From the NCBI GenBank assembly GCA_964016885.1, contig OZ024752.1, positions 33,356,001 through 33,420,000 on the forward strand: 64,000 nucleotides of DNA, given 5' to 3'. Under the pieces are notes generated by a model. The model saw only the letters and a list, made by a program, of their open reading frames with translations. It had not been told where the DNA came from and did not search any database. Position 1 is the first letter of the stretch, and the number at the start of each line of letters is the position of its first letter. Source of the stretch: Eledone cirrhosa (taxonomy: Eukaryota). Of this stretch, positions 10,466-59,480 are shown in pieces. The translations under genes and the position numbers were made by a program.

Positions 10466-10632
10466 ATAGGAAAATGTTTAACCCCGACGGCAGAGCTCAA
10501 GCCGTTTTGGCAGCTATTTCTGAACGGCTTGAGCTCTGCCGTCGGAGTTAAACATTTTCCTATTACCCACTTTACTACCCCAAGTGTTGAGTACTCTGGT
10601 GTGTTATGGTCCATCTGGTTCCTTACCACACA
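10466..10632 (+). mobile_element. Fold-back element (~98-bp hairpin plus one-sided tail) in a (TA)n tract
   Basis: ATAGGAAAATGTTTAACCCCGACGGCAGAGCTCAAGCCGTT is inverted at ~10523-10563; related copy at 49871-50063 in the opposite orientation. Confidence 0.8.
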
Positions 10633-10804
10633 CATATATATGTGTGTGTGTGATTGATTTTTTTAGTTTCAGAAGATCCGGTTAAGGGTGAAAGCAGCGA
10701 TTCTTTGCTTAAACTTTAATCTGTTATTTTAATAAATATATATATACATACATGCACAAATATGTATATACATACTAAAATTTAAGATTATTTTGTATAT
10801 TCAG

Positions 10805-10945
10805 GATATTGCTGACCCATTCTTTGCATACTGTAAAATGCATGCTGACAAAACCACAGCTCGAGCCAAAAGACGCAACTGGTTGGCTATTCAGTCACAT
10901 GTGAAAATGCATTCAGAGAAAGAGATAGAAGATGAAAAAGAAAAA
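10805..10945 (+). CDS. PHF14: PHF14 exon 7 (DIADPFFAYCKMHADKTTARAKRRNWLAIQSHVKMHSEKEIEDEKEK)
   Basis: ttcag/gtaagt borders; DIADPFFAYCKxHAD motif. Confidence 0.96.
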
Positions 10946-11049
10946 GTAAGTTCATTTTTTTTCTTCTAGTTTGGATAAAAATAAAAATAAATAAAAATCT
11001 ACAAAATGTGATGGTTAGATGATTGAAATTGTTGTGGATGCCATCATTA

Positions 11050-11710
11050 TGAAAAGCACCCAGTTCACCCTGTAAGGTGGTAGTGCTGGTGACAATGAAA
11101 ATTACCAAGTTCACCCTGTAATGTGGTAGTGCTGGTGACAATGAAAATTACCAAGTTCACCCTGTAAGGTGGTAGTGTTGGTGACACAATGAAAATTACC
11201 CAGTTCACCCTGTAAGGTGGTAGTGCTGGTGACAATGAAAATTACCCAGTTCACCCTGTAAGGTGGTAGTGCTGGTGACAATGAAAACCACCCAGTCCAC
11301 CCTGTAAGGTGGTAGTGCTGGTGACAATGAAAATCACCCAGTCCACTCTGTAAGGTGGTAGTGTTGGTGACACAATGAAAATTACCCAGTTCACCCTGTA
11401 AGGTGGTAGTGTTGGTGACAATGAAAATTACCCAGTTCACCCTGTAAGGTGGTAGTGCTGGTGACACAATGAAAATTACCCAGTCCACCCTGTAAGGTGG
11501 TAGTGTTGGTGACACAATGAAAATTACCCAGTCCACCCTGTAAGGTGGTAGTGCTGGTGACACAATGAAAATTACCCAGTCCACCCTGTAAGGTGGTAGT
11601 GTTGGTGACAATGAAAATTACCCAGTTCACCCTGTAAGGTGGTAGTGTTGGTGACAATGAAAATTACCCAGTTCACCCTGTAAGGTGGTAGTGCTGGTGT
11701 CAATGAAAAA
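11050..11710. repeat. 46-48-bp minisatellite related to the SINE-A internal unit, ~14 copies
   Basis: Unit AAAATTACCCAGTTCACCCTGTAAGGTGGTAGTGCTGGTGACAATG resembles AAAAGCACCCAGCACTCACTGTAAAGTGGTCGTG. Confidence 0.9.
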
Positions 11711-11934
11711 CACTGTCCACCCTTTAACACTTGATATCGTAGCAAAAGATTCTCAATGTTTCAGACACTAATCCTTCATCCGAAGATAGAATGAGAAATA
11801 AAAGATGAAATAGAAAGATAGAGTGAGAAGAGGAAGGCACAGAAAAAGTTTTCTTTCTTTTTTTGTTGAGAAAATGGATATATAATATATATTGTCATCA
11901 TCGTCATTTAACATTCATTCAATTTACTTTTCAG

Positions 11935-12010
11935 GCAAGATTTCAAAGAAAACTGAATAGACGTCGTCAGAAATATCTCCTTGCAAAAGCAAGAAGTACA
12001 CCATCATGGG
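11935..12010 (+). CDS. PHF14: PHF14 exon 8 (ARFQRKLNRRRQKYLLAKARSTPSW-V)
   Basis: ttcag/gtaagg borders; phase continuity with the neighbouring exons. Confidence 0.9.
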
Positions 12011-12093
12011 GTAAGGCTGTAAGTCATCATATAAACTAACAGGAATGAACCTGCTTCTGTTGTGTTAAGCCTTTCCTCTTCTATACCTATACA

Positions 12094-12499
12094 TTAACCC
12101 TTTAGCATTTAAACCTGTTGTATCCGACCAGAATTCTCTCACATCGTTCTGTTCAAACCGGTTGTGACTGGCCAGAATTCTCTCACCTTGTTCTGTCTCA
12201 AACCAGTTGCAACCGGTCAGGATTCTCTCACCTCATTCTGTTCAAACCAGCTGTAGCCAGCTAGAATTATCTCACCTCGTTCTGTTCATACCAGCTGTAA
12301 TCAGCCAGAATTCTCTCACCGTATTCTGTTCAAACTGGCTGTAACCGGCTAATTATACTAATGTTAAGATATTGTTCTCAAAATGAATAATATCAAAATC
12401 TTATAGATTTGATATTATGTGAGATAATTATGTAAGATAAAGCATTTACCTTGAAAATATAATAGCAAATATTGAGTAATGTAAATGCTAAAGGATTAA
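12094..12499. mobile_element. TTAA-flanked MITE with internally amplified ~43-46-bp repeats
   Basis: Same TIRs as 4010; about 5 copies of CCAGAATTCTCTCACC..TTCTGTTCAAAC. Confidence 0.85.
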
Positions 12500-12849
12500 A
12501 TACAAACTAACAGGAATCAAGCTGCTTCTGTTATGGTAAACCTTTCCTCTTATATAGCTATACATTAAATTATTTACAGACATTAGTGTTGTTTCAACTG
12601 AACTGATGAACCTCACAGGATAAAGGATGATTTAAGTTAATTTTTTCACCGAGTTCATGCTATCATAAAGCCAAAGCTTCAATCTTGTTGCTAAAATATT
12701 TTATATGTGAGAGGCAACTAGTGTCAGACTTTCATCACTCAATTTAATCAGTCCCAGAACTTAACTAGTCTCTTACTACTACTAAATTCATCCATTTCTT
12801 TGTGGTGACATGATAAAATATTTCAATCTCATATGATTCAACATTAACT

Positions 12850-13100
12850 ACCTCAGTTCTTTACCGGAGCTGGATAATTCTGTATCTTCCTCAATAACTC
12901 TCTCTAATGTCTTAAGAGGTCTTCCGTGTTTGAGTTTCACATTAGTGGGCCCCCATAGTAAAAGTTTTGTAACAGGTTCATTACCCCTCATGACATGACC
13001 TGCAAGTTGAAGACACCTGATACGGATGGTATGGTTAATAGGCGGGAGCTTGTAGTAGAGAATTTTGTTTGTAACACGGTCGAGAGGTTTGTTTTTTATC
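12850..13100 (-). mobile_element. Degenerate 3' fragment of a second LINE family (RTE-like)
   Basis: ORF with IRIRCLQLAGHVMR...LLLWGP...GRPLKT, typical of a non-LTR RT C-terminus. Confidence 0.7.
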
Positions 13101-13224
13101 CTTCGTAGCATCCTGTATAGCAACCATCTAAAGCTTTGGTGAATATCACATAAGTTAAACACAATACCTTTTTTTAATTTGTGCCTTTAATTTTCTTTTT
13201 TGTCTTTTGCTACATTTCTACTAG

Positions 13225-13319
13225 TGCCAACACAAAAATTGATTCGACATTTATCATCAAGTCCATCTGTTGTAAAGAAGATGTTGCGAAAAGCTGAATT
13301 GATGGGAATTATAACACAG
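13225..13319 (+). CDS. PHF14: PHF14 exon 9 (PTQKLIRHLSSSPSVVKKMLRKAELMGIITQ)
   Basis: ctag/gtcagt borders; RKAELMGI motif. Confidence 0.94.
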
Positions 13320-13372
13320 GTCAGTCAAATCTCATTCTCATTAAATTATGAACATATATATATATATATATA

Positions 13373-13770
13373 TATAATATAAAACGAAAAATCAGTGATG
13401 CATCTGAACTCAATTTATTGTGTGTTACATGTGTGCAGCATATTCTCTCACTGGGGTATCTGACCCTCTGGGTCAGTACCGTCAAAAACCTTTGACGGTA
13501 CTGACCCAGAGGGTCAGATACCCCAGTGAGAGAATATGCTCCGAAATCATTAGACGTGTCCATCGAACCTGCGGGTCCCGAATCAGACAGATCCACACAA
13601 TGATCGCGTCTCGAGCTGTCCACCGGCGAAACAATTGTAACACACAATAAATTGAGTTCAGATGCATCACTGATTTTTCGTTTTATATTATATCATACTC
13701 TGCTCTGTAAGAGCATAGAGTGCTCAACCAGGATACTGCCTATGGAAGCATCTTAGCTACCATCAGACAC
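13373..13770 (+). mobile_element. Nested fold-back element with one-sided tail in (TA)n
   Basis: Outer ~57-bp perfect inverted repeat (13373/13692), inner ~49-bp perfect inverted repeat (13438-13539), tail ATACTCTGCTCTGTAAGAGCATAGAGTGCTC. Confidence 0.85.
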
Positions 13771-13787
13771 ACACACATTTATATATA

Positions 13788-13819
<32 letters not shown>

Positions 13820-14107
13820 CATACAGTACTCACTGTAAATGTGGTTGGCGTTAGGAAGGGCATCCAGCTGTAGAAACAAAGCCAAAATCAGTTTTGTATG
13901 AGTAAGACATGGTCACCTGATCCGGTATTTCACACAACAGGGCAGCTCGTCCGACACATGCTAGTGTGGGAAAATGGACGTTAAATGGTGGTGATGATAT
14001 ATATATATATGTATATATATATATAATGCTGATGCTGTACATTTTAGTTTCTTTGTTACTTTTATTCTTCAATACATCAAACTATTTGTTTTGTTTTTTG
14101 TATCCAG

Positions 14108-14198
14108 GTCCAAAGTGTATCTCAAGATAAACAAGAATCTCGGAAAAAATGGCATTTGTCTCCAGCAATGTCCTTAGAATATATAAGCTATTATCTTG
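14108..14198 (+). CDS. PHF14: PHF14 exon 10 (VQSVSQDKQESRKKWHLSPAMSLEYISYYL-D)
   Basis: ccag/gtatgt borders; aligns with recalled RRKHKQPALTADFVNYYFE. Confidence 0.9.
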
Positions 14199-14265
14199 GT
14201 ATGTTTGCAAAGTTTTCATTCCAAAGATGATTATATTTTATTCTTTATTTCTTCATATCTGTTGT

Positions 14266-14478
14266 TTAACTCTTTAGCATTTAAACGGGTCGTATCTGGC
14301 CAGAATTCTCTCACCTCTTTCTGTTCAAACTGGCCATAACCAGCCTCTGATACTGACATTAAGGCGTTGTTCTCAAAATAAATAATATTAATATTATGTG
14401 AAATAATTATGTAAGATAAAGTGTTTACCATGAAAATACGATAGTATATATAGAGTAATGTAAATGCTAAAGGGTTAA
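14266..14478. mobile_element. TTAA-flanked MITE
   Basis: Same TIR family as 4010. Confidence 0.82.
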
Positions 14479-15748
14479 CACTAGCACCTGTCCCCTTTGA
14501 TGCTATTAGTATAACTCCACTTGGTTACAAACCTTTAGATCAGGTTTCCCATGCAAGGATAACTCAGTGTCTTGGTGTCTGGCTTCTTATAGCAGCAGCC
14601 TTATTCTCCTCTGACTTAGCATTAAAAACCATTATAAGAATTTTATGTATTTCTTCTTGTGAAATATTAAATTTCCACAAAAGAGGCTGGAGACACAACA
14701 ATCGGAAGATGATAGCTATAGTGATGGTTGTTATAGCAAGACACATTATTTCACGTTACTCCAGTTCACTCAGCTGTAGAAATGTGTTTCAATGTCACAG
14801 GTGCCATCAGTCATTGCCTCTCCCTTGGACAACATTGGTGGCGTGGAGAGAGAGACTGGTATGGGCGACTGCTGGTCTTCCACAAATAACCTTGCCCGGA
14901 CTTGTGCCTCAAAGGGGAACTTTCTAGGTGCAAATCTCATGGTAATTCGTGACCAAAGGGGGTCTTTACTCTAGCGGTGAGGGCAATGTAATTTTACTAA
15001 AAGACCAAACACACTTATGTTTTGGTGCCTACACGTCCACTTTACCCAGCTCTCACTGTAAAGTGGACGTGTAGGCACCACGGAAAAAAAGCACCCACCA
15101 CTCACTGTAAATGAGGTTGGTGTTAGGAAGGGCATCCAGCTGTAGAAATCAAGCCAGAATCAGTTCCTATATGAGCAAGGCATGGTCAACCGACCAGCTA
15201 CTGTCCACAACAGGCCAACCCATCTAACCCATGCTAGCGTGGAAGAACGGACGTAAAACGGGGATGATGATGTCAAGAGGACCTTTGCAGATGCCACAAT
15301 AAAATACATCCAGTACAGTGGTTGGTGTCAGGAAAGGCATTTCTCATTATCATCATCCTCATTTTAATGTCTGCTTTCCCTGCTAGCAAGGGTTGGGCAG
15401 GTCTATATAGACCTATACAGTGTTGAAGCAGGGCTACTGATCTCCCAACACCAGGCTGACTTACTCAGACTATAACAACCCATCCAACCCATGCCAACAT
15501 GGAAAATAGATATGAAATGGTGTGTATGACACAATAATGGTTTCTGATTTAGGTACAAGGCCAACAATTTTTGGGAGAGGGAAAAGATATTAATCGACTC
15601 CAATGGATTACTGGTATTTTATTTAATCAACCCTGTAAGGATGAAAGGCAAAACTAACCTTTGAAATCAGAACGTAAAGGGCTGTAACTGTATGTTGTCT
15701 AACATTCTACTGACAAAAATAACATTAAATGTTTTATCCTTCTTACAG

Positions 15749-15855
15749 ATAGAAATGCTCGTATAGATACAATGAGAATTAACATGAAGGAATTGTCAAC
15801 TCAGAACTGTAAGCTTCAAGAACAACAGAAAATATTAAGAGTACAATATGATCAG
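15749..15855 (+). CDS. PHF14: PHF14 exon 11 (RNARIDTMRINMKELSTQNCKLQEQQKILRVQYDQ), coiled coil
   Basis: ttacag/gtaagt borders; phase continuity. Confidence 0.9.
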
Positions 15856-16103
15856 GTAAGTAGAGACTTTGAATGGTTAAGAGGACTGGGGAACATCAGG
15901 AGATTTGGATATAGAAGTTTCTAAATAAAATCATTGAAACATTAATAGATTGAAGCTTATTGTTATTGTTTAGCCATAAGTCAGGCCTGATTAAACAGAT
16001 CTATGGCATAGAAATACTTGCTTGAGGCGGGTTTTCTTCTCTGAAGACCTTCTGTTCTCCAGCTCTCCTGAGAGTTACTTACCACCTATATATATATATT
16101 TAT

Positions 16104-16545
16104 ATCATCATCATCATCATACGTCCGCTTTTCCCTGCTTGCAAGGATGGGACGGGTCTTATTCAGCACAGCATCTCTCCACTTGTCACGGCCCTTCGTC
16201 ATCTCCACCGTGAGCTTCAGTGATCTGAGGTCTGTTCTCACCGCCTCCGCCCATGTTTTTCGTGGTCTACCTCTCCCACGTCTTCCTTCAACTGGCATTT
16301 CCTGGCACTTCTTCACCCATCGGTCATCCTCCATGCGCATCACATGTCCATACCACCTCAGTCTCCTCTCCCGTACACTACATTCTATCTCTCTCAACAC
16401 ATTTATGCTGGGTCGTTCATGCACATTGACATTGCACATCCAACGGAGCATGCTTGCCTCATTTCTCTCCAGCCGTTGCATATCCTCTGCAGTTGTTGCC
16501 CATGTCTCACTACCATGCAGCATCGCGCTCCTCACACAGGCATCA
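16104..16545 (-). mobile_element. Short 3' fragment of the same RTE LINE as 8555-10021
   Basis: Near-identical sequence and (GAT)n tail. Confidence 0.9.
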
Positions 16546-16557
16546 TATATATATATA

Positions 16558-16714
16558 TGAGTTCTGGGTTCAATTGGGTAACCACAGTAAGTGAAGCACT
16601 CAACACATAGTAGAGTATATATAAAATTTAATATAGAAATGGCTTCTACAGTACTAGGACTGCTTTCTTTCGAATGAAACAGTTCTAGTCTTGTAGAAAC
16701 CATTTCTATATTAA
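16558..16714 (-). mobile_element. Short fold-back element with one-sided tail in (TA)n
   Basis: Imperfect inverted repeat 16628-16714 (TTAATATAGAAATGG...CCATTTCTATATTAA); tail reverse complement ATACTCTACTATGTGTTGAGTGCT. Confidence 0.7.
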
Positions 16715-17060
16715 GGCACATGGGTTAGTGGATAGAGCATTGGCCTTGCAATCGAAAGGTTGTGAGTTCAATTCTCAGACCGGGTGATGTGTTGTTTCCT
16801 TGAGCAAGACACTTTATTTCACATTGCTCCAGTTTACTCAGCTGTAGAAATGAGATGATAGGGACTGGGGTCTGGTCCCTATCATTCCACTGCAAAGTGG
16901 TCGTGGAGGTGCCACGGCAAAAAAGCACCCAGCACTCACTGTAAATGAGGTTGGTGTTAGGAAGGGCATCCAGCTGTAGAAATCAAGCCAGAATCAGTTC
17001 CCGTCCCACCCTTGCAAGCAGGGAAAAAGTGGACGTAAAATGAAATGATGATGATGATGA
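16715..17060 (+). mobile_element. SINE family A copy
   Basis: Same head, body and tail as 2426-2746. Confidence 0.85.
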
Positions 17061-17495
17061 TATATAAATATGGGCTGAAAACACTTTCTTGTGGAGTTTC
17101 TTCTCTGAAGACTTTCTGTTATTCAGCTCTCCCAAGAGTTTCTTACCACTAGAGTCAATAGGTTAACTAGATGTAATCCACAAATATATTTCTGAAGTTA
17201 AACCATGTTTTCTACTTGTGTAACACTATATTGTGGAGCATGAAAAAAAAAAAGCAACACGTCCACATATGATAAACCACTGGATGTTAGAGTATATATA
17301 TATATATTTAGGTTTGTTGGTTCACCACTGGTTAGAACTGGTCATTCCGTATGCTCAACCTCGATGTAATATTATGGAGAGCACTCGACGTAATGCAACT
17401 CATCCGTCTTCGTTTGTGTTGGTGGTGCGAGTACGGAGTTAATTATTATAAAATAACAGGAGGCTGGACTGGTGTAATTCCTTAAAAGGTTTATT

Positions 17496-17553
17496 ATACT
17501 ATGATCATTTCAATGACTGGGTTTGGTATGAATCCGGTGACATCATCAGGTAT
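17496..17553 (-). ncRNA. Putative type I hammerhead ribozyme (left-arm copy)
   Basis: Reverse-complement copy of 17721-17778 with intact CTGATGA and GAAATGATCATA. Confidence 0.5.
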
Positions 17554-17720
17554 TCTAAATATAACAAAGGAATATAATAGACAAAATCCATGGTGCTGAA
17601 AATCAGAGACATGAGGGCGGCTGACTATTTAGCAGCTACCAACCCGGTCAACCGCCCTCAAGTGTCTCTGATTTTCAGCACCATGGATTTTGTCTATTAT
17701 ATTCCTTTGTTATATTTAGA

Positions 17721-17778
17721 ATACCTGATGATGTCACCGGATTCATACTGAACCCGGTCATTGAAATGATCATAGTAT
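17721..17778 (+). ncRNA. Putative type I hammerhead ribozyme
   Basis: ATAC-CTGATGA-[stem II ACCGG/CCGGT, TTCA/TGAA]-GAA-ATGATCAT-A-GTAT; palindromic stem III; base of stem II imperfect. Confidence 0.55.
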
Positions 17779-17844
17779 AATAAACCTTTTAAGGAATTAC
17801 ACCAGTCCAGCCTCCTGTTATTTTATAATATATATATATATATA

Positions 17845-18101
17845 TTAAGTGTTTCCGAAGGAAAGGAGAGTGGTCTATGTAGGCTACAGAGCTATTTAGT
17901 TATGTAATTAACAACATAAGACAATTATTCCATTTACCAAAGGTTTCACGAAGACAGATGAGCTCGACACAGACGTCTGAAATCGTTCATCAGAAATTCA
18001 GTTTCTGATGAACGATTTCAGATGTCTCTGTCAAGCTCGTGTGTCTTCGTGAAACGTTTGGTAAATGGATTAATTGTCTTATGTTGTTTATTACATAACT
18101 A
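17845..18101. mobile_element. ~205-bp fold-back element with hammerhead cores on both arms plus tail
   Basis: Inverted arms 17897-18101; plus arm CTGATGA-ACGA...TCGT-GAAAC-GTTTG-GTA (18005-18063); tail 17845-17896 related to 50314-50380. Confidence 0.8.
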
Positions 18102-18214
18102 TATATATATATATATATAACTTTGATAGGTTTTGGCCAGTATTGGCCCAGGCCATGTCTAACTTAATAGCACCAATATATATAATATTTATGGTTTGTG
18201 GATGGGAGAGGCTA

Positions 18215-19088
18215 TTTATTGCTAGTGTTTATATTTGAACTCTTTCAGTGAATAATTTTATTGCTAGTGTCTATATTTGAACTCTTTCAGTGAATAATTT
18301 TATTGCTAGTGTCTATACTTGAACTCTTTCAGTGAATAATTTTATTGCTAGTGTCTATATTTGAACTCTTTCAGTGAATAATTTTATTGCTAGTGTTTAT
18401 ATTTGAACTCTTTCAGTGAATAATTTTATTGCTAGTGTCTATATTTGAACTCTTTCAGTGAATAATTTTATTGCTAGTGTTTATATTTGAACTCTTTCAG
18501 TGAATAATTTTATTGCTAGTGTCTATATTTGAACTCTTTCAGTGAATAATTTTATTGCTAGTGTCTATATTTGAACTCTTTCAGTGAATAATTTTATTGC
18601 TAGTGTTTATATTTGAACTCTTTCAGTGAATAATTTTATTGCTAGTGTCTATATTTGAACTCTTTCAGTGAATAATTTTATTGCTAGTGTCTATATTTGA
18701 ACTCTTTCAGTGAATAATTTTATTGCTAGTGTCTATACTTGAACTCTTTCAGTGAATAATTTTATTGCTAGTGTTTATATTTGAACTCTTTCAGTGAATA
18801 ATTTTATTGCTAGTGTCTATACTTGAACTCTTTCAGTGAATAATTTTATTGCTAGTGTCTATATTTGAACTCTTTCAGTGAATAATTTTATTGCTAGTGT
18901 CTATACTTGAACTCTTTCAGTGAATAATTTTATTGCTAGTGTTTATATTTGAACTCTTTCAGTGAATAATTTTATTGCTAGTGTCTATATTTGAACTCTT
19001 TCAGTGAATAATTTTATTGCTAGTGTTTATATTTGAACTCTTTCAGTGAATAATTTTATTGCTAGTGTTTATATTTGAACTCTTTCAG
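18215..19088 (+). repeat. 42-bp minisatellite ending at the exon 12 acceptor, 21 copies
   Basis: Unit TGAATAATTTTATTGCTAGTGTCTATATTTGAACTCTTTCAG; terminal AGs from 18248 to 19088 at 42-bp spacing. Confidence 0.96.
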
Positions 19089-19184
19089 TTACTGAATGAA
19101 ATGAATCGGTTGAAAGATTCCACCCACAAACTTCAACAAAATGGAGAAGAAACCTGGAGTATTCTAACTGACCTTTCAGGACAG
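19089..19184 (+). CDS. PHF14: PHF14 exon 12 (LLNEMNRLKDSTHKLQQNGEETWSILTDLSGQ)
   Basis: tttcag/gtaaat borders; aligns with recalled LCESLEELQNLNGKLRSEGQGIWALLGRITGQ. Confidence 0.9.
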
Positions 19185-20184: not shown

Positions 20185-21657
20185 GTAAGTTCTGCTACTT
20201 CACTTTTCCATTCACTTCTTCCCTTCAGTTTAGTTGTGCTTATCCTATATTTGCATTTTTCCTTTTTTTGAAAGATTTCCTCTCACCTCCCTGTTCTTTA
20301 TTTTTAACTTTCTATCTCATTTATATCTTTCTTCTCTTTAAGACTGTTGTTCTTTCATTGCTATTTACTAAATAGCTGTTTGTTATGAGATTTCCTAAAA
20401 TTCCCTCTAATTTTGAGAATTCTATGAGCCTCAATGAGCAATAGGAATTGAGTGTTGTTTGCACAGAGAAAAGAGAAAAAAAAACTAGGTTATATGAATG
20501 TATAAGACTGTCAAATGTTATGGGTAATTGAAACAACAACAATCATCATCATCATCATCATCGTTTAATATCCATTTTCCATGCTAGCATGGGTTCGACA
20601 AATTGGTTATTCCGTTGTGAGACAAGTCGGATCAGAGGACCGTGTCTTACTTATACAGAACTTTCTGGTTTGGTTTCTATGGCTTGATGCCATTCCTAAC
20701 ACCAACCACATTTACAGAGTAAGAAAGTTGAGTTTGAAGCCCAGCAAAGGAATCAGCTAGTAAAAAATGGTAGAGAAGTACATAAGATATTTAAGATATT
20801 ACTTGTATAAAATAAAGTTGATTATATTGAACAGTATAGGAATTTCGTTAGTAAGTCATTTATTACACTTGGGAGCGGGGGGATCCCAAAATATGCTTTT
20901 ATGTTCTATACCTGTTGCAGTTCTTTGGCACACAATACTCTTATTATCAACAGAGACTTCTTTATCCAAAAAAATATTACAACAATTTCAATAAACTTGG
21001 AAGGTGGAGGGTCTTTTTTATTTTTATACATATTGTATATAGAATACCAAAGTCTGAGGATTTTAATAAAGTAAAATTGTTTCACTTTTGGGTATTTGTT
21101 TCATAAATCTAAAGCAGATTTTTGTCAATATTTGGTCACAATAGTCAACATCTTTAAGTGATAATTTTTTAAAATTTTTATATCAGGTTTAGAGTAACAG
21201 ATTCCATAAGTTATTGCCAAATTGTTAATAAAATTTTAAGAACTTTAAATCAAAAATATATTTCATTTTAACACTTTCTGTTCATACCATTATTTCAATA
21301 CTTATATTGGAGGTAGGATTTTGTGATAGAAAAAAAAACATTGGAATTTCTTCTTTTTTTTTTTAATCCTTTATTGATTAACCTTTATTAATTAACCTTC
21401 TAGAATTGCATGATTTTTGTGTTTTGTGTTAATTATAGAAAAACAAAAATGTTTTTTATTGGTGTGTTTTTTTTCTTAGATATTTTTTAGTGAATAATTT
21501 ATATAACACTGCTGTAATTAATTTATTTGTGAATGAATGCACATGACCAACTAAATGTTGAGTGACACTTGAAAGTAAATATATATACACATGTATGTAT
21601 ATATATATATATATACACACACATATATATATACAGGAAGGTAAAAACCTGGCCACG

Positions 21658-21704
21658 ACACCTACTGGTTTCGGCTTGTATTCTGAAAGCCTTTTCAAGA
21701 GTGT
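21658..21704 (-). ncRNA. Putative minimal type I hammerhead ribozyme with U3-A8 core variant
   Basis: Minus strand ACACTC-TTGAAAA-GGCTT-tcagaatac-AAGCC-GAA-AC-CA-GT-A-GGTGT, inside a ~215-bp insert in (TA)n. Confidence 0.6.
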
Positions 21705-21862
21705 ACAGCCTTGCTGAATTGCCAAATATATGCTGAAATTGCAAGGCGTTACGGTTGGTTTTTTTATCTTCCTCTAGACCCACTCTGCTTCTTCCCCTGC
21801 ATAGAATACTGCCTTGATTTGTAGTCTCCCCAGTCTTGGCATTGAAGACTTTATACATACAT

Positions 21863-21890
<28 letters not shown>

Positions 21891-21893
<3 letters not shown>

Positions 21894-21972
21894 AAGGTGT
21901 CCAAAAAGTCACTAGACAATTTTATATGTATATTTATATAAAATTGTCTGATGACTTTTGGGACACCCTGTA
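21891..21972. mobile_element. Tc1/mariner-type mini-MITE (palindromic, TA-flanked)
   Basis: TA-CAAGGTGTCCAAAAAGTCA ... TGACTTTTGGGACACCCTG-TA. Confidence 0.7.
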
Positions 21973-22547
21973 TAATATACATGCAGAGAGTGGCAGAGAG
22001 CAAAACTCAAACAAAACTATTTGGTTAGAGAATGTTATAGAGCAGAGAGAGAGAGAGAGAGAGGAGTTCTTTTGTCATAATAGTAAGGATATGTCAGTTC
22101 CCGTCCCAGCCTTGCAAGCAGGGAAAAAGCGGACGTAAAATGAAATGAAATGATGAATGAATGTACTGATATCACAGCCATACATTACTAAACAGAAACA
22201 GTACACTCTGTTATATATTTTTATATAAACAGTAAACCCTATTTACTTCCTTTATCTACCATTATCAATTGCTCTTTATTTATTCTTCCTAGTAATAATT
22301 AGACATAACTTGTTAAACATCAGAATTTTACTGAAATCTCCAATCAGATAGAAACTTTTAATGAGTTCTATATCGATTTTAAAAAATCAATAAAATTTAA
22401 CAAATAGATGTAAAGATTTTTTTTTTTCTCTCCAGTCCAGAATTTTTAATTTTTTAGTTATTGTTGGATAAAATAGTTTCACACTGGCAACTTATGTCTA
22501 TTTCTTCCTGTAATATTATCTGTCAGGCGGGCTGCTATTGACATGTT

Positions 22548-23472: not shown

Positions 23473-23604
23473 TTGTGGAATCTGTAAAAAATCAACAAAC
23501 CAGCATCTGTTGGCCAAATGTGATTCATGTAGCAAACACTACCATCTTGGCTGTCTTGATCCACCACTCTCACGTATGCCCAAGAAAACCAAGCTACAAG
23601 GCTG
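23473..23604 (+). CDS. PHF14: PHF14 exon 14 (CGICKKSTNQHLLAKCDSCSKHYHLGCLDPPLSRMPKKTKLQG-W), PHD3
   Basis: ggcag/gtaagt borders; C4HC3 PHD pattern with YHLGCLDPPL. Confidence 0.96.
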
Positions 23605-48830: not shown

Positions 48831-48886
48831 TGTAACATTGTGTTAATTATTGGTAGTCTTGCTTGTATGTACTAATTAAACTAGAT

Positions 48887-49716: not shown

Positions 49717-49870
49717 GACATAAACAAGTGACATTTAAAGCTCCTTATTTCCATCACACAGTTTTCCCACGAGATACTAACATAATTAATATATGTGTTG
49801 GTTACATATTAAGGGAACTTTCTGATGGTTGTGAGTTCAATCCCTAGGTTTATATATATATATATATAAA

Positions 49871-50063
49871 ACGAAGGAAGTGTGGTAAGGAACCAGATAG
49901 ACCATAAGGCACCAGAGTACTCAGTACTTAGGGTAGTAGAGTGGGTAATATGAAAATGTTTAACCCCGACAGCAGAGCTCAAGCCGTTTTGACGGCTATT
50001 TCTAGACTGAAATAGCTATTGAAATGGCTTGAGCTCTGCCGTCGGGGTTAAACATTTCCATAT
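49871..50063 (-). mobile_element. Fold-back element plus tail, same family as 10466-10632
   Basis: Hairpin 49948-50063 and tail homologous to the reverse complement of 10564-10632. Confidence 0.8.
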
Positions 50064-50069
50064 ACATAT

Positions 50070-50380
50070 ATAATAAACAACATAATATAATTATTCCATT
50101 ACCCAAAGTTTCACAAAATTGGACAATTCTAACAGAAACATCAAGTTCGTTCATCAGATGAATGGATCAGATATGGAATTAAAAATCTATCATATCTTAT
50201 GTCCATAACATAAACATTTCATCTGATGAACGAACTTGATGTTTCTGTTAGAATTGTCTAATTTTGTGAAACCTTAGGTAATGGAATAATTACATTGTGT
50301 TGTTTATTATATAATGAAATAGCTCTGTACAATACATAGAGCACACTTCTTTCCTTTACCTTTTCTACAGAAATACTTAA
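50070..50380 (+). mobile_element. Fold-back element with divergent hammerheads plus tail
   Basis: ~95-bp inverted arms (50070-50313) around a ~50-bp spacer; tail AAATAGCTCTGTACAATACATAGAGCAC. Confidence 0.8.
50216..50287 (+). ncRNA. Type I hammerhead ribozyme, complete core
   Basis: ATTTCAT-CTGATGA-ACGAA...TTTGT-GAA-ACC-TTA-GGT-A-ATGGAAT: 7-bp stem I, 5-bp stem II base, 3-bp stem III, GUA cleavage triplet; mirror copy on the minus strand at ~50093-50164. Confidence 0.72.
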
Positions 50381-50402
50381 CACACAGACACGCACACATA
50401 TA

Positions 50403-50748
50403 TCATCATCATCATCATCATTTCATTTTACGTCCACTTTTCCCTGCTTGCTAGGGTGGGACGGGAACTGATTCTGGCTTGATTTCTACAGCTGGATGCC
50501 CTTCCTAACACCAACCTCATTTACAGTGAGTGCTGGGTGCTTTTTTGCCGTGGCACCTCCACAACCACTTTGCAGTGGAATGATAGGAACCCCAGTCCCT
50601 ATCATCTCATTTCTACAGCTGAGTAAACTGGAGCAATGTGAAATAAAGTATCTTGCTCAAGGAAACAACACATCACCCGGTCTGAGAATTGAACTCACAA
50701 CCTTTCGATTGCAAGGCCAATGCTCTAACCACTAAGCTATGTGCCTCC
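50403..50748 (-). mobile_element. SINE family A copy
   Basis: Reverse complement of the 2426-type copy. Confidence 0.85.
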
Positions 50749-51178
50749 AGTGTACATACATACTCACTCTGTTTTAAGCAGAACAAGCAAGTGGCATTAA
50801 ATAAATAAGTAACTAATTGACTCATCATTATCATCATCACTATCATCACCACCATCATCATCGTTGTCACCGTCTGGTTTAATGTCTTCTTTACTAATAC
50901 AACGATATCTTGGACATAGATGCAATAATAACCATCTATCCCAGGGGTTTGCATTAAGGGCTAGGTTTGAAATACTGATGTATTTGTACCAAATTCAAGT
51001 GTACACCTGAAGGTGGGAGTATTAACAGGTAAAATATTGTGATTATAAACCCAAGATGAGGACACTATTCAGTTAGTTATAATGAAGGTTTACAATATTG
51101 CAAATGTTTTTAAAATGTTTTGTATTTTTTTTCATCCTCCACGACCACATTTTAGGCATGTTATTAGTCATTTCTTTC

Positions 51179-51211
<33 letters not shown>

Positions 51212-51213
51212 TA

Positions 51214-51275
<62 letters not shown>

Positions 51276-51480
51276 ATTATATTTATATATATATATATAT
51301 ACACATAATTATATTTATATATATATGTATATATATACACATAATTATATTTATATATATATATATATATATATATACATGCATATCTGTATATATATAT
51401 ATATACATACAATACACTCTGAAATTGCCATGCTGTTCATCATACACTGACTGCTGGCTTGACGTGACAGAGTTTCTAGG

Positions 51481-51515
<35 letters not shown>

Positions 51516-51516
51516 G
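51179..51516. repeat. Compound (TA)n/(CA)n tract and (GTT)n microsatellite
   Basis: Direct reading. Confidence 0.95.
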
Positions 51517-51924
51517 AATGCATCTCTTTACCTGGCATGTGCTCAGTCATTGGTTTGGTGTTGTTTTGTTTTTCTTAATTTTTGAATGATTTAATGAGCT
51601 CCATTAATTAAGACAAACCGATAACCTTTGTTTTGTTTCAGAAATTTCTACTAAATAATAATACTACTACTACTACTACTATTACACTGTGACTATTATA
51701 CTTTTTGTAAAGCATCTTTAATGAAACAAACAATTAAGATTTTGCAGATGAAGGCACCATGCAAGGGTTTCCACCAAAATTGATGAACACATGGAAACAT
51801 ATTTTTTTTTAGAATGAAACAAACCAAAAACAGCGCATTCACCGTTATCATTATCATCCTCATTATCCTGTTAACATCCGTATCCATGTTTTTCCATGCT
51901 TGCATGGATTGGACGTTAAGTTAC

Positions 51925-54900
51925 AGTGGTCGTGTAGGTGTGACGACAAATAGCACATAGTCCACAGTGTAAAGTGGTCGTGTAGGAGACACAGCAAAAA
52001 GCACCCAGCACGCACTGTAAAGTGGTCATGTAGGAGACACGGCAAAAAGCACCCAGCACGCACTATAAAGTGGTCGTGTAGGAGACACGGCAAAAAGCAT
52101 CCAGCACGCATTGTAAAGTGGTCGTGTAGGAGACATGGCAAAAAGCACCCAGTACGCACTGTAAAGTGGTTGTGTAGGAGACATAGGAAAAAGAACCCAG
52201 CACGCACTGTAAATTGGTCGTGTAGGAGACACGGCAAAAAGCACCCAGCACGCACTGTAAAGTGGTCGTGTAGGAGACACGGCAAAAAGCACCCAGTACG
52301 CACTGTAAAGTGGTTGTGTAGGAGACATAGGAAAAAGAACCCAGCACGCACTGTAAATTGGTCGTGTAGGAGACACGTCAAAAAGCACCCAGCACGCACT
52401 GTAAAGTGATTGTGTAGGAGACATGGCAAAAATCACCCAGCACTCACTGTAAAGTGGTCATGTAGGAGACATGACAAAAAGCACCCAGCAGGCACTGTAA
52501 AGTGGTCGTGTAGGAGACATGACAAAAAGCACCCAGCACACACTGTAAAGTGGTCGTGTAGGAGACATGACAAAAAGCACCCAGCAGGCACTGTAAAGTG
52601 TTTGTGTAGAAGACATGGCAAAAAGCACCCAGCATGCACTGTAAAGTGGTCGTGTAGGAGACACGGCAAAAAGCACCCAGTACGCACTGTAAAGTGGTTG
52701 TGTAGGAGACATGGGAAAAAGAACCCAGCACGCACTGTAAATTGGTCGTGTAGGAGATACGGCAAAAAGCACCCAGCACGTACTGTAAAGTGGTCATGTA
52801 GGAGACACGGCAAAAAGCACCCAGCACGCACTATAAAGTGGTTGTGTAGGAGACATGGCAAAAATCACCCAGCACTCACTGTAAAATGGTCGTGTAGGAG
52901 ACATGACAAAAAGCACCCAGCACACACTGTAAAGTGGTCGTGTAGGAGACATGACAAAAAGCACCCAGCAGGCACTGTAAAGTGGTTGTGTAGGAGACAC
53001 GGCAAAAAGCACCTGGCATGCACTGTAAAGTGGTTGTGTAAAAATACGGAAAAAAGCACTTAGCACGCACTGTAAAGTGGTTGTGTAGGTGTCATGACAA
53101 AAAGCACCCAGCACACACTGTAAGGTGGTTGTGTAGGTGTCATGACAAAAAGCACCCAGCACACACTGTAAAGTGGTTGTGTAAGTGTCATGACAAAAAG
53201 CACCCAGCACACACTGTAAAGTGATTGTGTAGGAAATACGGCAAAAAGCACCCAGCATGCACTGTAAAGTGGTTGTGTAGGAAATACGGCAAAAAGCACC
53301 CAGCATGCACTGTACAGTGGTTGTGTAGGAGACACGCCAAAAAGCACCCAGCATGCACTGTAAAGTGGTCGAGTAGGAGACACGGCAAAAAGCACCCAGC
53401 TGGCACTGTAAAGTGGTCATGTAAGAAATACGATAAAAAGCACCCAGCACGCACTGTAAAGTGGTCGTGTAGGAGATACGGAAAAAAGCACCCAGCACGC
53501 ACTGTAAAGTGGTCGTGTAGGAGACACGACAAAAAGCACCCAGCATGCACTGTAAAGTGGTTGTGTAAGAAATACGGCAAAAAGCACCCAGCACGCACTG
53601 TAAAGTGGTTGAGTAGGAGACACAGCAAAAAACACCCAGCATGCACTGTAAAGTGGTTGTGAAGTAGATACGGAAAAAAGCACTTAGCACGCACTGTAAA
53701 GTGGTTGTGTAGGTGTCATGACAAAAAGCACCCAGCACACACTGTAAAGTGGTTGTGTACGTGTCATGACAAAAAGCACCCAGCACACACTGTAAAGTGA
53801 TTGTGTAGGAAATACGGCAAAAAGCACCCAGCATGCACTGTAAAATGGTTGTGTAGGAAATACGGCAAAAAGCACCCAGCACACACTGTAAGGTGGTTGT
53901 GTAGGGGACATGCCAAAAAGCACCCAGCATGCACTGTAAAGTGGTCGAGTAGGAGACACGGTAAAAAGCACCCAGCAAGCACTGTAAAGTGGTCGTGTAG
54001 GAGACATGGCAAAAAGCACCCAGCAGGCACTGTAAAGTGGTTGTGTAAAAAATATGGCAAAAAGCACCCAGCAAGCACTGTAAAGTGGTCGTGTAGGAGA
54101 CACGGCAAAAAGCACCCAGCTGGCACTGTAAAGTGGTCATGTAAGAAATACGGCAAAAAGCACCCTGCATGCACTGTAAAGTGGTCGTGTAGGAGACACG
54201 ACAAAAAGCACCCAGCAAGCACTGTAAAGTGGTTGTGAAGGAGATACGGAAAAAAGCACTTAGCACGCACTGTAAAGTGGTTGTGTAGGTGTCATGACAA
54301 AAAGCACCCAGCGTGCACTGTAAAGTGGTTGTGTAGGAGACACGCCAAAAAGCACCCAGCATGCACTGTAAAGTGGTCGTGTAGGAGACACGGCAAAAAG
54401 CACCCAGCATGCACTGTAAAGTGGTCGTGTTGGAGACACGGCAAAAAGCACCCAGCAGGCACTGTAAAGTGGTCGTGTAAGAAATATGGCAAAAAGCACC
54501 CAGCACGCACTGTAAAGTGGTCGTGTAGGAGACATGGCATAAAGCACCCAGCATGCACTGTATAGTGGTCGTGTAGAAGACACGACAAAAAGCACGCAGC
54601 ATGCACTGTAAAGTGGTTGTGTAGGAGACACGACAAAAATCACCCAGCACGCACTGTAAAGTGATTGTGTAGGAAATACGGCAAAAAGCACCCAGCATGC
54701 ACTGTAAAGTGGTCGTGTAGGAGACACGACAAAAATCACCCAGCACGCACTGTAAAGTGATTGTGTAGGAAATACGGCAAAAAGCACCCAGCACGCACTG
54801 TAAAGTGGTCGAGTAGGAGACACGCCAAAAAGCACCCAGCACGCACTGTAAAGTGGTCGAGTAGGAGACACAGCAAAAAGCACCCAGCAGGTACTGTAAA

Positions 54901-56255
54901 GTGGTCGTGTAGGAGACATGGTAAAAAGCACTCAGCACGCACTGTAAAGTAGTTGTGTAGGAGACACGGCAAAAAGCACTTAGCACGCACTGTAAAGTGG
55001 TTGTGTAGGTGTCATGACAAAAAGCACCCAGCAGGTACTGTAAAGTGGTCATGTAGGAGACATGGTAAAAAGCACTCAGCACGCACTGTAAAGTGTTTGT
55101 GTAGGAGACACGGCGAAAATCACCCAGCACGCACTGTAAAGTGGTTGTGTAGGAGATACGGCAAAAAGCACCCAGCACGCACTGTAAAGTGGTCGAGTAG
55201 GAGACACGGCAAAAAGCACCCAGCACGCACTGTAAAGTGGTCGAGTAGGAGACATGGCAAAAAGCACCCAGCACACACTGTAAAGTGGTCGAGTAGGAGA
55301 CATGGCAAAAAGCACCCAGCACGCACTGTAAAGTGGTCGAGTAGGAGATACGGAAAAAAGCACCCAGCACGCACTGTAAAGTGGTCGAGTAGGAGACACG
55401 GCAAGAAGCACCCAGCAAGCACTGTAAAGTGGTCGAGTAGGAGATACGGAAAAAAGCACCCAGCACGCACTGTAAAGTGGTCGAGTAGGAGACACGGCAA
55501 GAAGCACCCAGCAAGCACTGTAAAGTGGTCGAGTAGGAGATACGGAAAAAAGCACCCAGCACGCACTGTAAAGTGGTCGAGTAGGAGACACGGCAAGAAG
55601 CACCCAGCAAGCACTGTAAAGTGGTCGAGTAGGAGATACGGAAAAAAGCACCCAGCACGCACTGTAAAGTGGTCGAGTAGGAGACACGGCAAGAAGCACC
55701 CAGCAAGCACTGTAAAGTGGTCGTGTAGAAGACACGGCGAAAATCACCCAGCACACTGTAAAGTGTTTGTGTAGAAGACATGGCAAAAATCACCCAGCAC
55801 GCACTGTAAAGTGGTTGTGTAGGAGATACGGCAAAAAGCACCCAGCACGCACTGTAAAGTGGTCGAGTAGGAGACACGGCAAGAAGCACCCAGCATGCAC
55901 TGTAAAGTGGTCGTGTAGGAGACACGGCAAAAAGCACCCAGCATGCACTGTAAAGTGGTTGTGTAGGAGACACGGCAAGAAGCACCCAGCACGCACTGTA
56001 AAGTGGTCGTGTAGGAGACACGGCAAAAAGCACCCAGCACGCACTGTAAAGTGGTTGTGTAGGAGACACGGCAAAAAGCACCCAGCACGCACTGTAAAGT
56101 GGTCGTGTAAGAAATACGGCAAAACGCACCCAGCATGCACTGTAAAGTGGTCGAGTAGGAGATATGGCAAGACATGGTCACCTGACCCAACTTTCTCTAA
56201 TAGGACAAACCCGTCTAACCCATGCTAGCGTGCAATAGACATCAAATGATGATGA
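51925..56255 (+). repeat. 48-bp minisatellite (~88 copies) of the SINE-A internal unit, ending in a SINE-type tail
   Basis: Unit AAAGTGGTCGTGTAGGAGACACGGCAAAAAGCACCCAGCACGCACTGT followed by CAAGACATGGTCA...CTAACCCATGCTAGCGTG...ATGATGATG. Confidence 0.95.
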
Positions 56256-57012
56256 AGACCATTTTTGCTCCTATCTGTCCACAAAACACTCAGCGAACAT
56301 CCTAAACCAAACACCAACATGCACTCATGATTCTTGAACCACCCTCTAAATTCGGCAGACTGCCCACCTTTCCAAACGTGGCTAACCGAACAGAAACTGC
56401 AACAGCCACATAATGGGAAGAGAGATGTTATCAGCCTACAGCTGTCATATTACGTAGTTTCTATATAATAAAGCTAATATTATCTGTAATTCAATCCAGC
56501 CATTGGGAAACTATACCGGGAGAGAGGTTCGTGTCAAATTAGTTTGGTATCTTGTACAAGAAGACAGCATAATACACCATACTCTGTGTTTTAAGTAACA
56601 GGCATCAATAACATTGCTAACACTATTACTACTGATGCTGTACAACAGATTTCTGTATACTGACTCTTATTTTACCACATATGAGGCTTGATGATACAAC
56701 AATCAACCATTACTACTGATGTTAGACATTAGATTTGGTGTGCAAACAAGAGGATTGTGTAAATGAGAGATTGATAGGTTTCACTCAAACTATAGTTTTC
56801 ACCATAATTTACAATCTGGGTATATCTTGATTATTTTCCAAGATATTTAGTCACTAATGGAGAGATTGAATCTCCAATAAAACACCAAACTTTGTTTTAT
56901 ATTTCAGTTTTATTTTTTGCATAATTAATAATCTTTAATTATTTATTCATTAATTTTATAAAAATATTAGTAATAACTGCATAATTATGCCATTATTTTT
57001 CAGCTTTATAAT

Positions 57013-57196
57013 GGTGGATTGGCAGTATCGGTAGAGGGTCGGACGATATGCTTTGACGCATAGAGTTACGGATCTTTCCATTCTGAGTTCAAATCCCGCC
57101 GAGGTCAACTTTGCCTTTCATCCTGACGGGGTCGATAAAATAAAGTACCAGTAATGTACTGGATAATTGCTGGCCTTGTGCCAAAAGTAGAAACAA
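57013..57196 (+). mobile_element. SINE family B copy with ~21-23-bp target-site duplication
   Basis: Flanked on both sides by ATTATTTTTCAGCTTTATAAT(GG); similar to 4204-4384. Confidence 0.88.
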
Positions 57197-58455
57197 TTAT
57201 TTTTCAGCTTTATAATGGATTGTTATAGTTGTTTTCTTGACTGGTGGATTGTGTAAAATGACAGACTTTGTGGTATTTAGCACTGTAGGGAGTTCAACCC
57301 ACTCAACTCTATACCTTTGCTACCAAATGTATGGATTTCTATTAATGTAAACAATTTTTAACCCATGCTAGCATGGAAAATGGATGTTAAATGATGAAGA
57401 TGATGATGATGATAAATTAATATTCTTCTTTGCCCACTTATTCCTGAGAGGGTCACAGGGGCAGGGACTTCAAACATTCCTTCCAGTCAGAAGCAACCAT
57501 CTCCATTTGATCTAGCTGGATCTCCAAATGAGACCAATCAAGCTCATGGATTTTATCTAAACATCTTACTCAGTGTCTACCCCTGGATCTTCTGCCTGTT
57601 GGTTTTGCCTGTAAAATCCATCCAGTGATACTATAGGCATATGGTTAGAATGTTTTAGGATAGAATCACTGGACAGATGATAAATTAATATTAAGTTTTA
57701 ATGTTAGAGATTTTTTAAAACTTCAATCACTCAAGGTGAACCATGTATCGGCTCATAGAAAGTTATTTTCCAAGCCACAGGCTTAAGCAAGTTTTTTTTT
57801 TTTTTAATGAACTACCAACAGTTGCCTATGCAGCAAATTCCCCATACCGAGACCACCAATGTTACCCAACAGATAAGCAATGAGCGATACATATAGGTAC
57901 CAGTGAGCTATCTCATCATATCATGGGATATCTCAGAACATAAAGAGTCTGAAAAATACTGCAAAACATTTTGTCAAACACTAATAACAATTCCACCACC
58001 ATTTTGTCTTTTGTCGTTCCTGGAAGGAGGATAAAAGACAGTTAACTTCAGCAGGATTTAATCCTTTAGCCGTTACATTACTCTATATATACTATTGTAT
58101 TTTCATGGTAAAGGCTTTATCTCACATAATATCGAAGCTATGAGATTTTTATGTTATTTATTTTGAGAACAATACCTTAATATCAGTATGAGCGGCCAGT
58201 TACAGCCCGTTTGAACAGAAAGAGGTGAGAGAATGCTGGCCAGATACGGCTAAAGGGCCAGAACAAATATCTCAAGGAATTTTGTCTGATGTTCTAATGG
58301 TTCAGTCAATGCACCATCTTAGATATCAGCCCTGAAATTATCATTATTTATAATTATCATCATCAATGTTCATTTTCCATGCTTGCATGAGTTAGACATG
58401 TCTTACGTTGAGAGATGGGTCAGGCCAGGAGACCGAGTCTTGCTCATACAGATCT

Positions 58456-58486
<31 letters not shown>

Positions 58487-58585
58487 CAATAATATAATTT
58501 TTGTATCATTGTATATATTTTAAACATTGATTTTTTTCCTCCCATGGCATTTCATGTGTTTTCTTCTTCTTCTCTCCATCTGTAG

Positions 58586-58721
58586 GCAATGTTCTGAATG
58601 TGCCAGCTCTAGTAGTGATGTTTCTGAAGAAACGGGAGTCGATGTAGACGCTCCTCGCAAACTACGAGAGAAGATCAAAGAACCTATTAAGTTTGAACAA
58701 TTACAATTAGATATAAAATCA
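58586..58721 (+). CDS. PHF14: PHF14 exon 15 (QCSECASSSSDVSEETGVDVDAPRKLREKIKEPIKFEQLQLDIKS)
   Basis: Strong pyrimidine tract with tgtag, gtaagt donor; completes W-QCSEC of PHD3; IKEPxKF motif. Confidence 0.94.
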
Positions 58722-59359
58722 GTAAGTATTTTCTTTTATGTTCCTTTTCATTATTAATGCTCGGTGTATTTTGTTTTCACATTGAAACGCAAGCTTACTA
58801 ATGAGAAAGTTAGTTATATTACTAAATCCCTCCAAATTCCTGATTATTTTCAAAATGATAGGATGCAAGACATAAGCTTTGTGAGTTGTCATACTTTTCA
58901 AAGTTTTGGAGTGGCTTGTCTGGTTAGCTGCTGTTCCTATAACTAACCACTTATCCTAAAACTAAATGTTATCATACCAGCAGCGTTAGAGCGTCTTTGC
59001 TATACTGTATCAATTTCTAATCTGAGCTACTGCTCTCCTAGAATAGGTTATCTTCACTACAGCTTACAGGGTCCACAACCCCATATAAGTATTTAGTTGA
59101 AGTTACTGCTTTCCTTTCTGCCAGGAGCTGCAACCAGTAGATGGTATCAGCAATGAAAACATTGTTTCCTTGGTTCGATTTGAAGGGTTCCACCCTACTC
59201 GATCAGCAAATGAGTTCTGGGATCTTGTCAACCAACCTCTATGCTCTCCTACATACACCCCAAAAATAGAAAGATATATATATAGTGGTAGTAAGAAACA
59301 CACAGGAGAGCTGGACAAGTGAAGGTTTTCTTTATTTATATATATATAAGGGCCAAAAG

Positions 59360-59480
59360 ATTGTTTCTGAAGACGGTTTGATCGGACCTATACATGAAAT
59401 CCGATAGTATAGTTATAAAACTGCTATAGATCAGTCAATATGTCGATATGATCAAGCCTCCGAAACGATCATAAAACAAT
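59360..59480 (+). ncRNA. Degenerate type I hammerhead with long stem II
   Basis: ATTGTTT-CTGAAGA-cGGTTTGATC...GATCAAGCCtcc-GAA-ACGATCAT-A-AAACAAT; perfect 7-bp stem I; insert bounded by (TA)n. Confidence 0.55.

Follow-up and report, generated by a model that had tools for sequence, protein, structure and literature searches.

The window analysed here is the whole stretch of 64,000 nt of the Eledone cirrhosa genome assembly GCA_964016885.1 (contig OZ024752.1, positions 33,356,001-33,420,000, + strand). The host gene, PHF14, runs through it on the + strand: an exon encoding the PZP domain lies at 5824..5937 (+; matches to the PHF14 chains 7d8a and 7d86, E 3.2e-14), a PHD exon at 23483, and more exons were found. 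Nine inserts are located in the PHF14 introns; they are 5'-truncated pseudo-long terminal repeat (pLTR) ends of Hydra-clade Penelope-like elements (PLEs) and non-coding derivatives of such elements, sitting in (TA)n tracts. A preliminary description of this DNA had listed seven palindromic and two non-palindromic inserts. All seven palindromes are present at, or a few bases from, where it had placed them, and each is tailed on a single side as described; among the other two, that near 59350 is indeed a solo sense copy, and that near 21635 turned out to be an old palindrome. The five to seven families then proposed become eight (A, B, B2, C, D, E, F and G), the inserts at 10466 and 49948 belonging to one family and those at 17893 and 50067 to sister families.

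The inserts in the PHF14 introns

Family C is represented twice. Its first stub (10466..10630, +) has arms at 10466-10506 and 10523-10563 and a tail to ~10630, in which the tail box, a bulged hairpin described below, occupies 10569..10595 (+; one substitution in the 5' strand); the stub retains the hammerhead 3' half only, comprising GAAA, stem III and the cleavage site, with GAAA damaged on both arms. The second (49870..50063, -) is composed of a palindrome (49948-50063) and a tail (49870-49947), again keeping only the 3' hammerhead half. The family D stub (13372..13769, +) has a 58-bp inverted end (13372-13429), a main arm to 13693 and a tail (13694-13769), its palindrome (13372-13693) being made of the 58-bp outer arms and an inner palindrome (13437-13540); it carries a type I hammerhead with a long stem II (13555..13644, +; degenerate core CCATCGA) and an intact tail box (13697..13724, +). 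In the family G stub (16560..16714, -) the palindrome (16628-16714) is centred in hammerhead loop II, leaving the hammerhead 3' half only, and the tail (16560-16627) contains the box at 16595-16616.

The family A stub (17298..17830) consists of two arms (17444-17611, -; 17663-17830, +) around a 51-nt centre which is a native hairpin of the element, plus a tail (17298-17443, -) with its box at 17380-17439. A minimal type I hammerhead with a 4-bp stem I and a palindromic stem III is found at 17721..17778 (+; core 17725), and its mirror copy has the core at 17549 on the - strand. The neighbouring family B2 stub (17845..18105) has arms at 17893-17996 and 18002-18105, a tail at 17845-17892 (-) and cores at 17993 (-) and 18005 (+), the junction cutting stem I to 2 bp. 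The family B stub (50067..50381) has arms at 50067-50162 and 50218-50313, a boxed tail at 50314-50381 (+) and cores at 50157 (-) and 50223 (+), the latter, with its 7-bp stem I, being the best-formed ribozyme of the window. The old family F stub (21636..21860) is a degenerate palindrome (21636-~21775) with a damaged-box tail to ~21860 (+) and a U3-A8 variant hammerhead (core TTGAAAA at 21698-21692, - strand); the consensus of the family is a palindrome (93%) followed by a tail, and both strands of the window copy match this consensus, while a direct arm-to-arm alignment of that copy scores 34, the best of 500 shuffles scoring 35. The family E stub (59349..59542, +) is solo, with no inverted arm and no tail, and bears a long-stem-II hammerhead (core 59367) in which a small deletion shifts the stem II register relative to the family. 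Stubs of different families pile into one TA tract at two places, A beside B2 (17298-18105) and C beside B (49870-50381); elsewhere in the genome, one locus (L325) has C, D and B stubs within about 1.7 kb.

Copy structure, the tail box and linked open reading frames

Searches of the 3.0-Gb genome, with 40 matches scored in each, gave each insert hundreds to thousands of relatives (first-look candidates, which are not copy numbers: A 1453, B 1362, C 1806, D 2414, E 1072, F 347, B2 633, G 2160). Copy structure was analysed in the 195 best BLAST-matching loci of seven families, which are not random copies. An inverted partner was present in 114 of them (89 of 170 without G, whose query forced inversion) and absent from 81; of the 109 inverted copies in which a tail was defined, 104 had it on a single arm, 1 on both arms and 4 on neither arm. 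The association with microsatellites noticed in the window extends to the sample, a microsatellite being found beside the 3' end in 162 of the 195 loci, compared with 1050 of 9750 control windows (10.8%).

The 3' ends of A, B and B2, whose queries did not include the tail, are bimodal, falling at the arm end or at the tail end (family A has 18 ends of the first kind and 12 of the second, the latter at +142..146), and both end types occur in non-inverted copies too, indicating that each is an independent end. The 5' ends cluster at one spot in A and C, in inverted and non-inverted copies alike: among the copies without a long inverted arm retained by a crude filter, ~10 of the 21 listed for A start at the 5' edge of the hairpin, and 6 of the 7 listed for C within a few bases of the common 5' spot. 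Family D 5' ends are spread over >1 kb. Almost every arm-arm junction is distinct (C 22/22, A 6/6, B 12/12, B2 8/8, G 22/23), indicating that the palindrome is rebuilt at each insertion. Consequently, the earlier view of self-contained fold-back mini-elements or retrozyme arrays had to be abandoned, given also the 81 copies without an inverted partner. A fixed-length miniature inverted-repeat transposable element, or a fold-back element with terminal inverted repeats, does not account for the variable junctions, the tail outside the arms and the variable 5' ends of D; no window insert lies within a tandem array, and no array of complete hammerhead units was seen. Target-site duplications are masked by (TA)n, and no empty-site allele was present among the joints listed, which came from three sequencing runs of one sample and were swamped by repeat copies. 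Apparent long sharing upstream or downstream between loci (C, E, F, B) proved to be only (TA)n or unrelated neighbours and was discarded.

The CTCT..GAG words reported in the tails are real and structured. The box that they form combines an RCUC/GAGY stem, bulged by 2 nt (UW) on the 3' side, with a Y-R pair and an upper stem-loop whose length varies between 7 and 75 nt. A descriptor of this box gave 260 matches in 1,095,443 bases of family loci (overlaps, double counts and families absent from the window included), compared with 3-6 in three shuffles. With a descriptor that requires no pairing (174 matches), the closing Y-R pair was U-A in 148, C-G in 20, U-G in 6 and C-A in 0, and the outer pair A-U in 139, G-C in 30, G-U in 4 and A-C in 1; an alignment-based pair count over 14 rows agrees with this structure and is partly circular, its rows having been chosen by a descriptor demanding the outer pair. 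All eight families have the box, which starts 0-11 nt beyond the end of the arm (box 1). Families A and C have another (box 2), beginning 2-5 nt beyond the end of the tail; it is present in both read-through loci of A and, in C, was recognised by pattern in 19 of the 30 read-through matches fetched (of 31), or in 20 when one identified by eye is added. In C, box 2 lies ~70 nt upstream of the start of the open reading frame (ORF). Boxes can also be read in the consensus files published with PMC8557442: at the 3' end of the coral Hydra-2_Amil, twice at the start of the sea-cucumber Hydra-1_Ajap, and in the entry before Hydra-1_Crog. The main text of PMC8557442 makes no mention of the box, though it stands in these files, and no description of it was found in the literature searched, which lacks most subscription journals and the Repbase notes. 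The box likely marks the two reverse-transcription start sites.

The proposal that the inserts derive from PLEs was borne out by families C and D, which join Hydra-type reverse transcriptase (RT)/GIY-YIG ORFs, and by family A, which is a non-coding head-to-tail unit. In read-through copies of family C the tail leads into an ORF; an open RT/GIY-YIG frame of 720 aa (P0040) lies between two family C pLTRs at one locus (L347), and a broken RT/GIY-YIG ORF between family C pLTRs at another (L345). P0040 contains RWR, DKT, a CxCX5C linker, and CxxC and CxH around the conserved residues E and N (E/N), and has no CCHH. Family D has RT and GIY-YIG fragments at two loci (L209, L173); its ORF in L209 shows the CxCX5C linker and CxxC/CxH around E/N, again without CCHH, and the RWK/DKT test applies to P0040 only, the family D copies being 5'-truncated. 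Long family D copies run upstream via the 3' untranslated region (UTR) into the GIY-YIG domain; of 20 loci selected with that protein, 10 have the D unit on the same strand, 1.3-2.5 kb downstream of GIY-YIG, and all 4 that include DNA upstream of the truncated ORF show an inverted D copy on its 5' side. Pfam gave no name to the D and H ORF fragments, P0040 being outside that scan; most homologues of the D ORF fragment carry PF26215 and two RVT_1. The Hydra clade is defined (PMC8557442) by RWK/DKT, CxCX5C, absence of CCHH, CxxC/CxH, a hammerhead pLTR and (TA)n insertion. By these ORF hallmarks, families C and D would be Hydra-clade PLEs, their similarity to the published Hydra rows having been judged by eye; a Neptune-type reading of the ORFs was dropped against the same definition. 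That the inserts are short Hydra-type PLE stubs is close to certain. A search with the family D GIY-YIG protein returned 57,965 first-look candidates, of which 150 were scored, which suggests that the genome is very heavily loaded with related elements.

Family A, a PLE derivative of ~2.1 kb organised head to tail, is non-coding. At two loci its tail runs directly into the body that precedes the arm, defining the unit; three long copies have no stop-free stretch >95 codons, the body gave no match to the PLE proteins tried, and no autonomous partner of the family was found. The unit was found as a partial tandem, most copies being dispersed and truncated. PLE ORF fragments near some A copies (L005, L026, L281, L285) were set aside as coming from other families inserted nearby. 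A young family A element (L279, G000:C2:120052000-120060700, positions 6430-8512) has arms 98-99% identical and an internal ~300-bp duplication.

A proposed mechanism and its rivals

The overall explanation that we prefer, and regard as probable, is that the inserts are Hydra-clade PLE stubs in which the palindrome arises from two cDNAs whose starts are set by the boxes. A PLE protein would nick both strands of (TA)n and bind the boxes on the RNA, and each nick would prime reverse transcription on AU-rich bases immediately 5' of a box. The tail-less arm would come from priming at box 1, and the arm carrying box 1 as its tail from priming at box 2. Both cDNAs would extend as far as the 5' end of the RNA, which probably corresponds to a start site inside the pLTR, and would be joined head to head at a variable junction; longer copies might come from read-through or tandem transcripts. 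In the PHF14 pre-mRNA the antisense arm would then pair with the sense hammerhead and block its folding, as a consequence of geometry. In vitro, the Poseidon PLE has two internal RT start sites that bound the tail, and both target strands are nicked (PMC11167929). Read from sequence, box priming of two cDNAs is in itself somewhat less secure than the overall explanation, and we hold it with moderate confidence. One cis-element, used at box 1 or at box 2, would account for the PLE tail, the inverted ends and the trans-mobilisation of partners such as family A; for Hydra PLEs from coral to octopus, we incline slightly to the generalisation that the element's protein uses the twice-repeated box as a template-boundary signal, which would explain these three features, while the hammerhead can decay, as in D, with no halt to the spread of the elements.

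Several points weigh against this explanation. Families B, B2, E, F and G showed no linked ORF within 1.5 kb, and family A none in the loci examined; these six families are assigned to the Hydra clade only through their common box, hammerhead and architecture. The 31 box clusters, of which 22 close with U-A and 9 with C-G, cannot be counted as independent lineages, and some of the singletons may have arisen by chance. Box 2 is known from A and C; the three pattern matches of family D had none, and B, B2, E, F and G were not searched for it. Concerning the copy sample, family F (25 loci) was left out of the 195-locus count, about five of the 195 loci are second arms of elements already counted, the C, D and G queries contained the tail and the G query both arms, and TA-rich ends blur the exact end positions. 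The start site in the pLTR is inferred only from the clustered 5' ends and from words that we take to be like the initiator (Inr) consensus.

The rival that survives best accepts the same elements and forms the palindrome by snap-back self-priming at a hairpin, on one cDNA or an antisense template. It remains a fair rival, because the junctions sit in or beside native hairpins (the 51-nt hairpin of A, hammerhead loop II of G, just past stem II in C), and junction palindromes have been read as self-priming in rotifer PLEs (PMC3846280). However, copies without a long inverted arm share the 5' start spot, non-inverted copies carry both 3' ends, and snap-back alone does not explain a box at both ends; we therefore consider it improbable. 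Somewhat less probable again is that the box acts as a DNA-level or post-transcriptional signal (endonuclease recognition, translation, stability) and not in RT initiation. The tail of Drosophila virilis Penelope is needed for endonuclease recognition of plasmid DNA, as recounted in PMC11167929, and the nearness of family C box 2 to the ORF start would suit such a role; but the box tolerates G-U and hardly ever the mirror mismatches (at the closing pair 6 U-G and 0 C-A, at the outer pair 4 G-U and 1 A-C; small counts), which fits a hairpin on the sense RNA, and the box is kept in non-coding family A, where translation is moot. Finally, we judge it very unlikely that these are retrozyme-like fold-back elements, complete in themselves, with an antisense arm selected as a silencing device to protect the host pre-mRNA: the large folding cost in full palindromes given below, the antisense arm being transcribed first on either strand, and the non-coding nature of family A favour it, but the sampled junctions all differ except for one G pair, 81 of the 195 loci have no inverted partner, PHF14 itself contains a solo sense copy (59350), the C, G and D stubs are palindromic without a working core, and the opposed-hammerhead layout has already been ascribed to truncated PLEs (PMC4209133).

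Compared with the Hydra-clade PLEs of PMC8557442, including Hydra-1_Obim, the elements have in common RW(K/R), DKT, CxCX5C, CxxC/CxH, no CCHH, a hammerhead and (TA)n insertion; an inverted truncated copy with a one-sided tail is also described for PLEs in that source. They differ in belonging, by eye, to other families than Hydra-1_Obim, in having 3' UTRs of 0.6-2.5 kb and tails of 50-146 nt instead of 30-40, and in their variant cores (U3-A8, U4C, A6U). With the minimal PLE hammerheads of PMC4209133, where dual hammerheads on opposite strands 100-700 bp apart are ascribed to truncated PLEs and monomers are reported to have low activity, they share a minimal or palindromic stem III and the covariant U3-A8 core; several of the present families are set apart by stem II inserts of 30-75 nt, by a mismatch in the first stem II pair or, in family C, by a stable 5-bp stem III. 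The Anolis Poseidon PLE (Frangieh et al. 2024, PMC11167929) is alike in the two ends that bound the tail and the AT-rich target, but belongs to another clade and initiates inside an AC-rich stem-loop, whereas the ends here lie just 5' of a twice-repeated bulged hairpin whose sequence is fixed and whose pairs covary. Penelope of Adineta vaga (Arkhipova et al. 2013, PMC3846280) likewise presents head-to-head inverted pLTRs, an optional one-sided tail and junction palindromes, and its pLTRs are sufficient in trans; self-priming on an antisense template was proposed there, and its target-site duplications can be seen, those of the present elements being masked by (TA)n. Like non-LTR (long terminal repeat) retrozymes and non-autonomous PLEs (bioRxiv 10.64898/2026.07.22.740005; MRC1 in PMC8557442), family A is non-coding, hammerhead-bearing and head-to-tail, but its unit is ~2.1 kb and its copies are mostly truncated and dispersed.

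Published work already covers the inverted truncated copy, the tail on one side, the targeting of (TA)n and the opposed hammerheads; the inserts as first described are an ordinary PLE footprint, and the box is the less ordinary part. The box would bear on how PLEs choose the RT start and on why the tail is one-sided: one PLE clade has been tested in vitro, with the binding motif localised to 172 nt (PMC11167929). A covarying hairpin of 25 nt at both end points, together with a family having an open ORF, provides a marker for non-coding riders of Hydra elements, and a telomerase-related RT starting at a structure-defined site inside its own RNA would be of general interest.

Hammerhead motifs, self-silencing and other features of the window

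Full hammerhead motifs are found in families A, B, B2, C (U3-A8), E, F and G, and a degenerate core in D. The claim that CTGATGA..GAAA..UH cores point outward on both arms holds for the palindromes at 17444, 17893 and 50067. A hammerhead model scan, suggested as a check, had a divided outcome: the hammerhead family was absent from the Rfam scan at E<=1, in which only miRNA-hairpin look-alikes below gathering scores appeared, and a strict hammerhead descriptor, which missed 17549, both 17893 arms, 21635 and 59350, gave 5 matches, 3 of them in inserts, where 30 shuffles averaged 0.9 and reached 3 at most. Matches at 7491 (+) and 7882 (-) fell in the range of the shuffles and were set aside; the second is a compact U3-A8 minimal hammerhead look-alike (7870-7890, -; core 7882), itself within the shuffled-control range. 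Stem covariation, whose absence the preliminary description had named among the results that would count against its reading, is seen between sister families (B vs B2, old vs young D).

CTGA(T/C)GA is kept in most copies of A, B and B2, the family E core is mostly CCGAAGA (U4C), and F and C have the U3-A8 variant, which is a published PLE core (PMC4209133). In family D, 22 of 30 distinct copies have the core CCGTCGA and one older copy has CCGAAGA. The spread of an abundant subfamily whose core is altered at U4 and A6 and whose stems are kept suggests that hammerhead cleavage may be dispensable in vivo. Activity in vitro falls with U4C and with substitutions at A6 (PMC3088659, whose passages on these changes do not discuss A6U itself), and cleavage is dispensable for Poseidon insertion in vitro (PMC11167929). 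A scrambled-order hammerhead considered for D was dropped once the ordinary upstream core was located. A U-U opposition occurs at the base of stem II in family A (17725-17770), in an A-like family (L280, ~6330-6400) and in G, and for family A the fold of lowest predicted energy is an alternative pairing in which the core is buried.

The preliminary description had further proposed that the pre-mRNA always contains a sense ribozyme which its own antisense arm could lock. Folding predictions support the locking: the active fold lies 4.4 kcal/mol above the free ensemble for the 50223 arm and costs 10-13 for the other six arms tested, compared with 82-95 kcal/mol inside three full palindromes, so that in these three the antisense arm would lock the sense ribozyme, and the geometry places the antisense arm first in the transcript whichever strand is read. 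The "always" did not stand, 59350 being a solo sense copy and four inserts having no working core to silence. Because junctions differ, many copies lack an inverted arm and four inserts have half a core or a dead one, the simplest reading is that self-silencing looks like a by-product of insertion; the coreless C, G and D stubs are equally palindromic. The stubs would add long double-stranded RNA to introns, in cephalopods a likely substrate of RNA editing; no one-way A-to-G excess between arms was found in the five window palindromes compared, which show few differences.

The remainder of the window is rich in repeats. A 36-bp tandem array of ~607 copies (21.7 kb, 95% matches; 27160-48828) fills one PHF14 intron, and other tandem arrays occupy 4-2384 (26 bp), 5989-6768, 11049-11709, 18215-19089 and 51925-56170 (48 bp). 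Non-LTR retrotransposon ORF fragments, which we take to be RTE-like, are present in two introns on the - strand (~8546-10020 and ~16130-16545). Two additional small palindromes are found at 15012-15092 and at 21889-21974, the latter within a TA tract and resembling what is presumably a Tc1/mariner-type miniature element.

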